Position numbers and translations under genes: made by a program. From a virus: a DNA stretch of 31,594 nt. This document shows, piece after piece, positions 17,644 through 19,361 of this stretch (the first letter of the stretch is position 1; each line of letters starts with the position of its first letter). The DNA is taken from the UHGV virus genome UHGV-0304743. One strand, given 5' to 3'. The notes beneath the pieces were generated by a model. The model did no database searches and was not told where the DNA came from. It saw only the letters and a list, made by a program, of their open reading frames with translations.

Positions 17644-17722
17644 GGGAGATTGACGGCAACTTGGTAGACCTATCTCGCTTAGAACGAGATGCTTGAGGGT
17701 TCGAATCCCTTGTCTCCTACCA
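17644..17722 (+). tRNA. tRNA with anticodon TAG (Leu by anticodon) but short variable arm
   Basis: Acceptor GGGAGAT/GTCTCCT, anticodon stem TCTCG/CGAGA with loop CTTAGAA, T-arm GAGGGTTCGAATCCCTT, CCA encoded; 79 nt. Confidence 0.55.
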
Positions 17723-17729
17723 AATTAAT

Positions 17730-17805
17730 GCAGGTGTAGCAAAATGGTTATGCGGCTGACTCTTAATCAGTAAGACGATGGGTTCAATTCCCTCCACCTG
17801 TACCA
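17730..17805 (+). tRNA. tRNA-Lys (anticodon CTT)
   Basis: Acceptor GCAGGTG/CACCTGT, anticodon stem GCTGA/TCAGT with loop CTCTTAA, T-arm ATGGGTTCAATTCCCTC, CCA encoded. Confidence 0.65.
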
Positions 17806-17811
17806 TACATT

Positions 17812-17887
17812 GGGGATGTAGTTTACATGGTTAAAACATAAGTTTTGCAAACTTAAGTACAGGGTTCAATTCCCTGCTTCTCCACCA
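17812..17887 (+). tRNA. tRNA-Ala (anticodon TGC)
   Basis: Acceptor GGGGATG/CTTCTCC with G3.U70 (Ala identity element), anticodon stem TAAGT/ACTTA with loop TTTGCAA, T-arm CAGGGTTCAATTCCCTG, CCA encoded. Confidence 0.65.
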
Positions 17888-17893
17888 ATTAGT

Positions 17894-17968
17894 GCATCCA
17901 TAGTTTAAACGGGAAAATTACAGTCTTCCAAACTGAGGTTGAGGGTTCGATTCCCTCTGGATGCTCCA
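17894..17968 (+). tRNA. tRNA-Gly (anticodon TCC)
   Basis: Acceptor GCATCCA/TGGATGC, anticodon loop CTTCCAA, T-arm GAGGGTTCGATTCCCTC, CCA encoded. Confidence 0.7.
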
Positions 17969-17975
17969 AATTAAT

Positions 17976-18052
17976 GCTGCTTTCGTATAATTGGCTATTA
18001 CACATCCCTTGTAAGGATGGAAATGCGGGTTCGAGTCCTGTGAGCAGCACCA
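17976..18052 (+). tRNA. tRNA-Thr (anticodon TGT)
   Basis: Acceptor GCTGCTT/GAGCAGC, anticodon stem CATCC/GGATG with loop CTTGTAA, T-arm GCGGGTTCGAGTCCTGT, CCA encoded. Confidence 0.7.
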
Positions 18053-18147
18053 ATTCAGAGGTCAAGTGAAAGACCGCTGGTGTCAACTGAAGACCGTAAC
18101 AAATTCCACGGAGTTGAGTTAGCGGCACAACTTCAGACCTCTTTCAC

Positions 18148-18222
18148 ACTCGCTTAGTTTATATGGTAAAACATCACCCTTACAAGATGAAGAAAAAGGT
18201 TCAAGTCCTTTAGTGAGTACCA
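18148..18222 (+). tRNA. tRNA-Val (anticodon TAC)
   Basis: Acceptor ACTCGCT/AGTGAGT, D-arm GTTTATATGGTAAAAC, anticodon loop CTTACAA, T-arm AAAGGTTCAAGTCCTTT, CCA encoded. Confidence 0.65.
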
Positions 18223-18223
18223 T

Positions 18224-18301
18224 GTTCCAGTATCCCAATTGGCAGAGGATGCAAGCTCAAACCTTGTATTAGTGACGGTTCGAATCCGTCTTGGAACACC
18301 A
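18224..18301 (+). tRNA. tRNA with anticodon CAA (Leu by anticodon) but short variable arm
   Basis: Acceptor GTTCCAG/TTGGAAC, anticodon stem GCAAG/CTTGT with loop CTCAAAC, T-arm GACGGTTCGAATCCGTC, CCA encoded; 78 nt. Confidence 0.55.
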
Positions 18302-18306
18302 ATTTT

Positions 18307-18382
18307 GCAGGATTAGTTCAAATGGATAGAGCAACAGTCTACGAAGCTGTTAATAGGGGTTCGAATCCCTTATCCTGCGCCA
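18307..18382 (+). tRNA. tRNA-Arg (anticodon ACG)
   Basis: Acceptor GCAGGAT/ATCCTGC, anticodon stem ACAGT/GCTGT with loop CTACGAA, T-arm AGGGGTTCGAATCCCTT, CCA encoded. Confidence 0.7.
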
Positions 18383-18399
18383 GATAAAAAGGTGATACT

Positions 18400-18642
18400 A
18401 TGCAAACATTAACAGTAGTTGAACATGAAAACTGTGAGAATATTGAGTTTGTCAGGGTCATTGGTGTTGAACACCACATTTTCTTAAAAGTAGGGTACTT
18501 ATGTGACCCTGCTAGAGTAGAAAGATTTATACGTGATTGTTTTGGTGGTAGACAGCTAAAGAGTGTTATTTTTGAGACAGTTTTACCAGAAGGTTTAGAA
18601 ACGAATAATAACATTTATCTCCTTACAAGGATTAGACGATGA
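18400..18642 (+). CDS. hypothetical small protein embedded in the tRNA array
   Basis: ORF track; RBS AAGGTG 7 nt upstream of ATG. Confidence 0.5.
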   Translation: MQTLTVVEHENCENIEFVRVIGVEHHIFLKVGYLCDPARVERFIRDCFGGRQLKSVIFETVLPEGLETNNNIYLLTRIRR

Positions 18643-19196
18643 GATATTTAAAATATGCTTCATGGGTTTTCCTAGCTTTGCTAGAACCATTAGCAGCAAC
18701 CTTAGCAGTTATCTTAGCACCTTTCGTAGTTCCATTTTACAGTGAGAAGAAAGGCCACTTACCTTTCGGATTTAGATGGATGGAGACATATGACAACCCA
18801 ATTGATGGTGACGAAGGTCATATCGAACGATGGGCTAAGATTAGAAAGATTGGTAAGCTGGGTGTCTACATGCAGAGAGTCGGATGGCTCTGGAGAAACA
18901 AAGCTTATAACTTCTCTTACCATGTATTAGGAAGAGATGTAAAAGATGTTACTAAGTGGAAAGGTAATATCAACGTAAGTTCTGACCCTGAAGATAATCA
19001 GACAGGTTATCTCCTAATGTGGAACAGTAATGCTTGGGGATTATTCGCTTTTATCCCATCAATTAAAGTCTTTGGTAAACAGTTTTACTGGAGAATTTAT
19101 ATTGGATGGAAACTAAAAAGTGTTGTCCCAGAAGAAAGAGCATTCTCAAGGGAAAGAGTTATGTTGGCATTCTTTATTCATCCACTGAGAAAGTAA
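18639..19196 (+). CDS. hypothetical membrane protein (N-terminal TM segment), embedded in the tRNA array
   Basis: ORF track; ATGA start/stop overlap with upstream ORF; hydrophobic N-terminus WVFLALLEPLAATLAVILAPFVV. Confidence 0.5.
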   Translation: MRYLKYASWVFLALLEPLAATLAVILAPFVVPFYSEKKGHLPFGFRWMETYDNPIDGDEGHIERWAKIRKIGKLGVYMQRVGWLWRNKAYNFSYHVLGRDVKDVTKWKGNINVSSDPEDNQTGYLLMWNSNAWGLFAFIPSIKVFGKQFYWRIYIGWKLKSVVPEERAFSRERVMLAFFIHPLRK

Positions 19197-19204
19197 AGAT
19201 TTAA

Positions 19205-19280
19205 AGGGGATTAGTTTACAAGGTTAAAACCTCGGTCTTTGAAATCGAAGAAGTTGGTTCAATTCCAACATCCCCCGCCA
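19205..19280 (+). tRNA. tRNA-Gln (anticodon TTG)
   Basis: Acceptor AGGGGAT/ATCCCCC (1:72 A.C mismatch), D-arm GTTTACAAGGTTAAAAC, anticodon stem TCGGT/ATCGA with loop CTTTGAA, T-arm GTTGGTTCAATTCCAAC, CCA encoded. Confidence 0.65.
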
Positions 19281-19282
19281 AT

Positions 19283-19361
19283 GCTCCATTACTCCAATTG
19301 GCAGAGAGGCCAGACTTAAAATCTGTGTTATGTATCGGTTCGAATCCGATATGGAGTACCA
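19283..19361 (+). tRNA. tRNA with anticodon TAA (Leu by anticodon) but short (7-nt) variable region
   Basis: Acceptor GCTCCAT/ATGGAGT, anticodon loop CTTAAAA on a 4-bp stem, T-arm ATCGGTTCGAATCCGAT, CCA encoded; 79 nt. Confidence 0.5.

Follow-up and report, generated by a model that had tools for sequence, protein, structure and literature searches.

Three leucine tRNA genes without a long variable arm in the tRNA array of a Felix O1-like phage

The short leucine tRNA genes and their array

The virus genome UHGV-0304743 from UHGV, a stretch of 31,594 nucleotides (nt) that was analysed as a whole and is called the window here, carries an array of tRNA genes. Three of these genes have leucine anticodons and are too short to encode the long variable arm that is present in their E. 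coli counterparts. The array and its three leucine genes are the following.

14976-20557, plus strand: tRNA array holding the three leucine genes; 25 tRNAs by ARAGORN with small open reading frames (ORFs) interspersed; 5.6 kb
17644-17722, plus strand: tRNA-Leu(UAG), type I; 79 nt including the encoded CCA; anticodon 17680-17682; called by ARAGORN, Rfam 30.5 bits
18224-18301, plus strand: tRNA-Leu(CAA), type I; 78 nt including the encoded CCA; anticodon 18258-18260; called by ARAGORN, Rfam 44.0 bits
19283-19361, plus strand: tRNA-Leu(UAA), type I; 79 nt including the encoded CCA; anticodon 19317-19319; called by ARAGORN, Rfam 47.5 bits

An earlier reading, made from the sequence alone, had placed tRNAs with leucine anticodons at these coordinates, and ARAGORN independently calls tRNA-Leu at exactly the same positions, with the same anticodons and the isotype Leu. 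The anticodon loops that had been read by hand, CTTAGAA (UAG), CTCAAAC (CAA) and CTTAAAA (UAA), are identical in the ARAGORN structures, and all three genes exceed the gathering score of the Rfam tRNA model RF00005 (29 bits). If the anticodon and T stems are given their canonical 5 bp, the variable loops are TGCTT for UAG (17690-17694, 5 nt), ATTAGT for CAA (18268-18273, 6 nt) and GTTATGT for UAA (19327-19333, 7 nt), so that both the lengths of 78-79 nt and the variable regions of 5-7 nt given by the sequence-only reading are borne out. At 5, 6 and 7 nt the loops leave no space for a stem-loop in any of the three tRNAs. All other parts of a functional tRNA were found in each gene, i.e., a 7-bp acceptor stem, a 5-bp anticodon stem, a 7-nt anticodon loop with U33, a 5-bp T stem and a T loop of the form GTTCRANYC. 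None of them has the variable region of more than 10 nt forming a stem-loop that defines a type II tRNALeu. They instead correspond to type I tRNALeu, a kind defined by a leucine anticodon and a variable loop that is short but has at least 5 nt, nucleotide 48 among them; all three loops end in U48. The possibility that the genes had simply been mis-parsed is ruled out by the agreement of ARAGORN, Rfam and the hand parse; an alignment with host tRNAs, which could have revealed an overlooked arm, exhibited one clean gap in the phage genes at the position of the arm.

The same array offers three class II tRNAs as controls, all called by ARAGORN.

15469-15556, plus strand: tRNA-Tyr(GUA), long variable arm, 88 nt
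17301-17390, plus strand: tRNA-Ser(UGA), long variable arm, 90 nt
20385-20477, plus strand: tRNA-Ser(GCU), long variable arm, 93 nt

The long arms of both tRNA-Ser and of tRNA-Tyr had been noticed before and are indeed present.

Across the array region, identity reaches 98.6% with Felixounavirus LF110P1 and lies at 93-98% with many Felix O1-like phages of Escherichia, Salmonella, Shigella and Citrobacter. The region matches 255 records, most of which have 'tRNA-Leu (x3)' annotated there, and the same tRNA array is annotated across Felixounavirus genomes. Judged by its sequence, the window is a Felixounavirus of the Felix O1-like type. As the short genes lie within a 25-tRNA array and are conserved across about 260 sequenced relatives, their lack of an arm is not a product of chance. 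The Felix O1 genome paper and a tRNA study on phage Sf14, which deal with this array or one related to it, list these tRNAs and discuss codon usage, yet both are silent on the absent arm.

Leucine identity elements and the proposed charging and decoding

The sequence-only reading had started from the premise that bacterial tRNA-Leu has a long arm and that this arm contributes to recognition by leucyl-tRNA synthetase (LeuRS). The first part holds for the E. coli counterparts, but the second does not, as E. coli LeuRS reportedly makes no use of the arm as an identity element (PMC9976931). This enzyme is reported to read A73, A14 (together with U8), the Levitt pair A15:U48, the position of G18G19, A20a, U54:A58, G18:U55 and G19:C56, whereas it can do without both the anticodon and the long arm, and variants lacking the arm remain active (PMC9976931). 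A73, U8, A14, A15, U48, the D-loop GG and the T loop GTTCGAATC are all present in the UAG, CAA and UAA genes, each of which ends in A-CCA. The sequence positions of the tertiary core (U8:A14, A15:U48, G18G19, an A at 20a, U54:A58 and U55/C56) could likewise be found in all three, with the geometry of the UAG tRNA being uncertain because one inserted base shifts its A14/A15 register. The CAA and UAA genes exhibit a leucine-type D arm with a 3-bp stem and the 11-nt loop CAATTGGCAGA, the same stem and loop sizes as in E. coli leuZ, leuX and leuW. Thus, a leucine anticodon, A73 and a leucine-type D arm, the set known from type II tRNALeu, occur together, and the UAG gene departs from it by the inserted base and a weak D stem. 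In agreement with this, the tRNAscan-SE isotype models rank Leu first for all three homologous, near-identical tRNAs of Sf14 (67.4, 49.1 and 60.2). Of the alternatives named in the sequence-only reading, these being unusual class-I-like leucine tRNAs is the one supported by the parse, the identity elements and the Sf14 isotype scores.

Another of these alternatives was that the tRNAs are charged with something else. They might accept a different amino acid and thereby recode leucine codons, or they might be uncharged decoys or regulators. Such a role might be suspected because E. coli LeuRS failed on a Streptomyces type I tRNALeu, and because the isotype runners-up for the Sf14 UAG tRNA are near (Ile2 65.7 and Lys 63.4 versus Leu 67.4). 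In addition, the class I shape, A73 and, in the CAA and UAA tRNAs, A35/A36 partly resemble class I tRNAs such as tRNAPhe. Several points nevertheless make this explanation improbable, starting with A73, A15:U48 and the leucine-type D arm. Alanyl-tRNA synthetase requires G3:U70, which is lacking in all three short tRNAs, and the seryl- and bacterial tyrosyl-tRNA synthetases use the long arm, so that these three enzymes are excluded. UAG, CAA and UAA are not among the anticodons recognised by the synthetases that depend on the anticodon, and a recoding of 49% of the phage leucine codons would be highly disruptive.

We therefore consider it probable (roughly 0.72) that the three genes encode functional phage type I leucine isoacceptors that would be charged by the host LeuRS and would serve the codons UUA, UUG and CUA of an AT-rich phage. 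The tRNAs would be transcribed within the 25-gene array, processed to molecules that already bear their CCA, and charged with leucine by the LeuRS of the host (E. coli, Salmonella or Shigella). The enzyme would read A73 and the shape of the corner formed by the D and T loops (U8:A14, A15:U48, the G18G19 position and U54:A58), and neither the anticodon nor the arm. As LeuRS would ignore the arm, it could be lost without a loss of identity. In translation, the UAA tRNA would decode UUA and UUG, the CAA tRNA UUG, and the UAG tRNA CUA and other CUN codons. These codons are common in the phage, with its G+C content of 39%, and rarer in its host. The sequences directly show the short architecture, the identity elements, purifying selection, compensated base pairs, the codon usage and a broad distribution in phages; we infer that the three tRNAs are expressed, charged by LeuRS and used by the ribosome.

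The codon usage fits with this. CTG is the dominant leucine codon in E. coli, and CTA is rare. In the window, which has a G+C content of 38.9%, the leucine codons of 31 ORFs are distributed over TTA (25%), TTG (13%), CTT (30%), CTC (6%), CTA (11%) and CTG (15%). The Sf14 study found the relative synonymous codon usage of TTA and CTA, though not of TTG, to be significantly above that of the host. Given this TTA and CTA usage, the three anticodons cover leucine codons favoured by the phage, which fits the usual codon-compensating role of phage tRNA arrays. With 25 tRNAs in 5.6 kb and anticodons for phage-favoured codons, the array as a whole fits that type of cluster.

Some observations weigh against functional leucine acceptors. 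Biochemical work on a bacterial type I tRNALeu has been confined to one study, in which the S. coelicolor tRNALeu(CAA), the only such tRNA tested, was not charged by E. coli LeuRS, and Fan et al. (2019) concluded that this enzyme only charges type II tRNALeu (PMC6614811). The published evidence on E. coli LeuRS and arm-less tRNALeu hence points both ways, with E. coli constructs being active and the Streptomyces type I tRNA not being charged. A reconciliation may lie in nucleotide 48. The S. coelicolor tRNA has C48 and therefore lacks the A15:U48 pair that E. coli LeuRS reportedly needs, whereas the phage tRNAs have this pair; C48 could thus account for the failed charging of the former while allowing that of the latter.

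Further points concern the structures. The tRNA-Leu(UAG) is structurally marginal: although it has A73 and G1.U72, its D arm is atypical, with the weak D stem ACG/CCT, a C.C mismatch in this stem and one additional base before A14, its Rfam score is merely 30.5 bits, and it has A37 where the host has G37. The UAA tRNA, which shares G1.U72 with E. coli leuZ, contains a C27.U43 mismatch. Among class I tRNAs, variable loops as long as 6 and 7 nt are unusual, and 119 of 135 viral short tRNA-Leu among the matches listed in the survey described below have 5 nt. In thermodynamic folding, the minimum-energy fold of the UAA tRNA is not a cloverleaf and the z-scores of the short tRNAs are weak (-0.5 to -1.8); folding was set aside as uninformative evidence for these reasons.

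Conservation, distribution and surroundings of the short genes

In comparison with the phages SUSP1, HY02, VpaE1 and VpaE1_ev035, identity is 98.7-100% in the CAA and UAA genes and 87-97% in the non-tRNA DNA of the region. In SUSP1 the UAA gene is 100% identical and its flanks 87%, and among 264 phage records 216 have a UAA gene that is at least 99% identical. On this sequence comparison both genes are under purifying selection, and they are too invariant for a covariation test. The UAG gene, in contrast, occurs in several alleles, whose identity to the copy in the window is 100%, 95% and 85%. The chief difference between them lies in the anticodon stem, which was exchanged as a whole with compensation (TCTCG/CGAGA versus CCATC/GTTGG); this can be seen even between genomes that are 98.6% identical across the surrounding 2 kb. 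For the UAG lineage a covariation set was assembled from the Felixounavirus alleles and the BLAST relatives from Arno18, TrudiRoth, KissB and AhP_Mru1 (five phage groups). The cloverleaf with a 5-nt variable loop leaves 94.4% of the cells paired, compared to 41-58% for registers slid by 1-3 columns, and both sides have changed in 12 of the 20 base pairs, a number that was reached in none of 500 shuffles.

These results bear on the idea that the genes are decaying remnants of class II tRNA-Leu genes that lost their arm by deletion. It could draw on the two pseudo-tRNAs listed in the array by the Felix O1 genome paper (none of them Leu), on the low Rfam score of the UAG gene and the label tRNA-OTHER or pseudo that it bears in some records, and on a plainly broken CAA/UAA chimera in the Salmonella phage FG1m. 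Decay would, however, hardly leave the CAA and UAA genes near-perfectly conserved between flanks that diverged by 13%, nor produce compensatory substitutions in the UAG lineage. As no tertiary or identity position has been lost, the CCA is still encoded and the same architecture recurs in many unrelated phages, pseudogenes are very unlikely.

Among otherwise near-identical Felixounaviruses, variation is concentrated in the UAG gene, as illustrated by OZ035744, which is 98.6% identical over 2 kb and 84.8% identical within the gene. One UAG allele retains a U30.U40 mismatch that is shared with the Pectobacterium phage Arno18. The FG1m chimera (L002, 5999-6076, called tRNA-Leu(CAA)) has the CAA gene on its 5′ side and continues as the UAA gene towards its 3′ end. 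The roughly 1 kb that had separated these paralogues was deleted via the shared sequence GGTTCGAATCCG, which left a mismatched acceptor stem and removed tRNA-Arg(ACG), tRNA-Gln(UUG) and two ORFs.

Short leucine tRNAs are not confined to Felixounaviruses. Three of 77 nt with the anticodons UAG, CAA and UAA are present in the Aeromonas phage AhP_Mru1 (Demerecviridae), three of 74-77 nt in the Lactobacillus phage LpeD (Herelleviridae), and short UAA and UAG forms of 77 nt in the E. coli phage TrudiRoth (Epseptimavirus, T5-like); Arno18 and the Acinetobacter phage KissB also carry such genes. A pattern scan of IMG/VR for a leucine-type D loop, a YAR anticodon and a T loop at short spacing yielded at least 120 loci, and genes were accepted upon an ARAGORN tRNA-Leu call, a demand that removed 45-nt pattern matches to tRNA-Lys(CTT/TTT). 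Among the matches listed, with the window and two named phages included, 135 distinct short-loop tRNA-Leu were confirmed. Their loops measure 5 nt in 119, 6 nt in eight, 7 nt in four and 4 nt and 9 nt in two cases each. A73 and U48 are each present in 134 of the 135, and in the 34 short tRNA-Leu from the same listed loci that lie outside the search pattern, and thus had no preselection for A14/A15, A73 was found in 33, A15 in 33 and U48 in 34. Among other class I tRNAs of these listed loci the share is 58% for A73 and 36% for A15:U48. An occurrence of A73, A15:U48 and the leucine-type D arm in about 99% of the 135 phage short tRNA-Leu among the matches listed is what selection by LeuRS predicts, and it speaks once more against acceptors of a different amino acid.

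At the same listed loci 68 of 68 tRNA-Ser and 33 of 34 tRNA-Tyr kept their long arms. The simplest explanation for the missing arm is that tRNA-Leu can dispense with it, since the only class II tRNA whose synthetase needs no arm is the one that lost it, while tRNA-Ser and tRNA-Tyr keep theirs. In this respect leucine tRNAs without and serine and tyrosine tRNAs with an arm would represent a natural-history confirmation of identity rules established in vitro.

A second scan, which allowed either spacing, compared viral contigs with a collection of bacterial and archaeal genomes comprising one genome per species. Short forms made up 39 of 117 matching tRNA-Leu in viral contigs (39 short versus 78 long, about 33%) and 10 of 113 in the genome collection (10 versus 103, about 9%; Fisher p = 5e-6). 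The tRNA-Leu variable regions fall into two length classes, one peaking at 5 nt and the other at 13 and 15 nt, with few genes in between. When the variable region is left out of the comparison, the nearest neighbour is again a short form for 107 of 138 viral short forms, although short forms account for 37% of the set. The UAG gene of the window is 77-81% identical to those of TrudiRoth (77%) and Arno18 and 58-60% identical to those of T5 and E. coli. Because the short forms cluster and the UAG gene is nearer to TrudiRoth and Arno18 than to T5 and E. coli, they look, on sequence similarity, like one or a few lineages moving between phages and not like repeated accidents. This suggests that short tRNA-Leu is a common but under-noticed variant in phages and no one-off.

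The distribution could also be taken to indicate that the loss of the arm is adaptive. Nucleases or toxins of host defence, or a nuclease induced by the phage, might recognise the arm or shape of the host tRNALeu and miss the short form, so that translation of the phage would continue. The enrichment in viral contigs (39/117 versus 10/113), the clustering of the arm-removed short forms and the UAG form shared at 77% identity by unrelated Enterobacteria phages (the window, a myovirus, and the T5-like TrudiRoth) are in line with this. So are anticodon loops unlike those of the host, a type of change that has elsewhere been linked to nuclease evasion. T-even infection reportedly (Yudelevich, 1971) cleaves the host tRNALeu1 within the region of the extra arm. 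Yet no nuclease of such specificity is known for the hosts of Felix O1, for which no search was made, T5 and T4 thrive with long-arm leucine tRNAs, and the chromosomal type I tRNALeu of Actinomycetota represents the same form without any phage context. As the enrichment in phages would equally be expected from a deletion bias combined with tolerance of LeuRS, we regard an adaptive loss as doubtful. Somewhat less likely still is a more elaborate version, according to which the arm-less tRNALeu are a phage-borne lineage that remains unseen by a factor recognising class II tRNALeu and supplies the phage with private, protected leucyl-tRNA during host shut-off or abortive infection. If true, enterobacterial LeuRS would have to charge a natural type I tRNALeu efficiently, at odds with the published conclusion that its substrates are type II only.

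For functional leucine acceptors, which we consider the better explanation, conserved phage type I tRNALeu with every E. coli identity element raise a testable question, namely whether enterobacterial LeuRS charges arm-less tRNALeu and how well. They would also offer tRNA engineering a set of compact LeuRS substrates that occur in nature. Provision for class I leucine tRNAs in phages should be made in annotation pipelines and isotype models.

The short forms detected in the genome collection are single chromosomal tRNA-Leu(UAA/CAA) genes, and the named hosts (Nocardioides, Gordonia, Arcanobacterium and Herbiconiux) are Actinomycetota. The bacterial loci L218, L229, L231, L240, L269, L299 and L308 have UAA type I tRNA-Leu, and L314 has a CAA type I tRNA-Leu. 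These chromosomal genes exhibit a conserved sequence (GCCCCCGTAGCCCAATCGGCAGAGGCAG...), a loop of the form NCAGT, A15:U48 and A73. A metagenome-assembled genome of a planctomycete (Planctomycetota; L285, 3550-3703) carries three consecutive type I leucine tRNAs with the anticodons CAG, UAA and GAG. Bacterial type I tRNALeu seems to be wider than the single Streptomyces case of the literature.

The converse case, i.e., tRNAs with an unexpectedly long variable region, was also observed in viral contigs. A recurrent 'tRNA-Ile(UAU)' of 91-94 nt has a variable region of 21-25 nt with a conserved CAGATTAG/CAGATAAT motif and is located at the following positions.

Long-variable tRNA-Ile(UAU) loci: L003 4296-4387; L027 4203-4294; L033 264-354; L080 4722-4815; L084 2342-2432; L174 11311-11401; L179 7547-7637

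Scattered viral Cys, Asn, Thr, Val, Pro, Glu, His and Gly tRNAs have variable arms of 11-18 nt. Together with the tRNA-Ile(UAU) they are candidates for true class II-like tRNAs, small insertions or introns. The array of AhP_Mru1 that holds the three short leucine genes further includes a tRNA with the anticodon UCA (L001, 796-875), which is annotated as a suppressor tRNA and called tRNA-SeC by ARAGORN; it could be a UGA-reading tRNA.

Within the window, the neighbouring ORFs were searched for a phage LeuRS or a tRNA-modifying enzyme and none was found, the matches being DUF2828/DUF7788, DUF7338, DUF7217 and an HNH endonuclease. Directly upstream of the array an ORF of 471 amino acids (13395-14810, plus strand) matches Pfam DUF2828 and DUF7788 as well as PHROG 850 'RNA-binding protein' (E = 6e-184). 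Its position beside 25 tRNA genes suggests an RNA-related role, and the protein may be of a Ro60/TROVE-like kind. Two of the ARAGORN calls, tRNA-Met(CAU) at 15229-15305 and the tRNA-Tyr(GUA) at 15469-15556, fall short of the Rfam threshold; in the Felix O1 paper the Tyr gene appears among the pseudo-tRNAs, and Met has a low Cove score (28.9). A tRNA-like element at 16624-16702 (plus strand) scores 31.7 bits with Rfam and has no ARAGORN call. Its acceptor stem CGGGGCG/CGCCTCG contains G3.U70 and is followed by ACCA, its anticodon loop is CTTCTAA (TCT), and it is almost without a D arm while having a variable region of about 23 nt. The element takes the slot of a canonical 75-nt tRNA-Arg(TCT) in the relative VpaE1 and overlaps the start of an HNH homing-endonuclease ORF (16669-17067; phrog_2255, E = 4e-41). 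The same cassette of tRNA-like element and HNH ORF is carried by VpaE1_ev035.

Comparison with known leucine tRNAs

The counterparts in E. coli K-12, leuZ (UAA), leuX (CAA) and leuW (UAG), have 87, 85 and 85 nt and possess arms. Phage and host genes share the anticodons, A73, U8:A14, A15:U48, the 3-bp D stem, the 11-nt D loop (AAYYGGYAGA) and the T loop, the host D loop reading RAAUYGGUAGA and that of the phage CAA and UAA genes CAATTGGCAGA. G1.U72 is common to the phage UAA and UAG genes and leuZ. The host genes differ by their variable arms of 13-15 nt, and they are just 45-60% identical to the phage genes outside the arm. Positions 32, 37 and 38 of the anticodon loops are not the same in phage and host (e.g., CTTAGAA versus TTTAGGT). 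An origin by deletion of the arm from host genes is ruled out by this low identity and by a BLAST search at E<=1 that found nothing in 5,426 E. coli genomes. The tRNALeu(UAG) of phage T5 is alike in belonging to an array of an E. coli phage, and its neighbourhood Ala-Leu-Ser-HNH-Ser is that of the short form in TrudiRoth. It differs in having 85 nt and a short arm of 13 nt, and it is 56-58% identical to the short UAG forms. A clean deletion of the arm within the T5-like lineage was rejected as well, as the long UAG gene of T5 and the short one of TrudiRoth are, in spite of the same gene order, 56% identical, which indicates a replacement.

Among natural type I tRNAs, the S. coelicolor tRNALeu(CAA) resembles the phage tRNAs in its 5-nt variable loop, 5 nt being the shortest variable loop that gives activity there, and it coexists with type II tRNALeu and a single LeuRS (PMC6614811). 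It is chromosomal, has the loop ACAGC ending in C48, and its A73 is no identity element for the S. coelicolor LeuRS (PMC6614811). In contrast, the phage tRNAs combine A73 with U48 paired to A15, i.e., the identity set of the E. coli type. The tRNALeu(UUR) and tRNALeu(CUN) of animal mitochondria likewise have no long arm, and mitochondrial identity rests on A73 and A14 (PMC9976931); they differ in being organellar, in having their own LeuRS and in their loose structure. According to a review, an engineered minimal E. coli tRNALeu without a variable arm (Larkin et al. 2002) is charged by E. coli LeuRS if A73 and the interactions of the D and T loops are intact (PMC9976931). This construct is a host-derived laboratory molecule, of which the phage tRNAs may be seen as the natural counterpart.

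A comparable case is a mycobacterial tRNALeu(TAG), which has a short variable loop and lies in an accessory tRNA cluster with an HNH endonuclease gene, with a normal chromosomal isoacceptor alongside (PMC6582537). Its host is actinobacterial, and it was mentioned in one sentence with no analysis of identity elements or distribution (PMC6582537). No prior report of arm-less tRNA-Leu in phages, Enterobacteria phages included, was found in the full-text literature, a scope outside of which lie most subscription journals and the phage-tRNA work of the 1980s. Type I tRNALeu as such is already known from animal mitochondria, S. coelicolor and the mycobacterial cluster; the points of interest are its extent in phages and the conflict with the conclusion that E. 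coli LeuRS charges type II alone.

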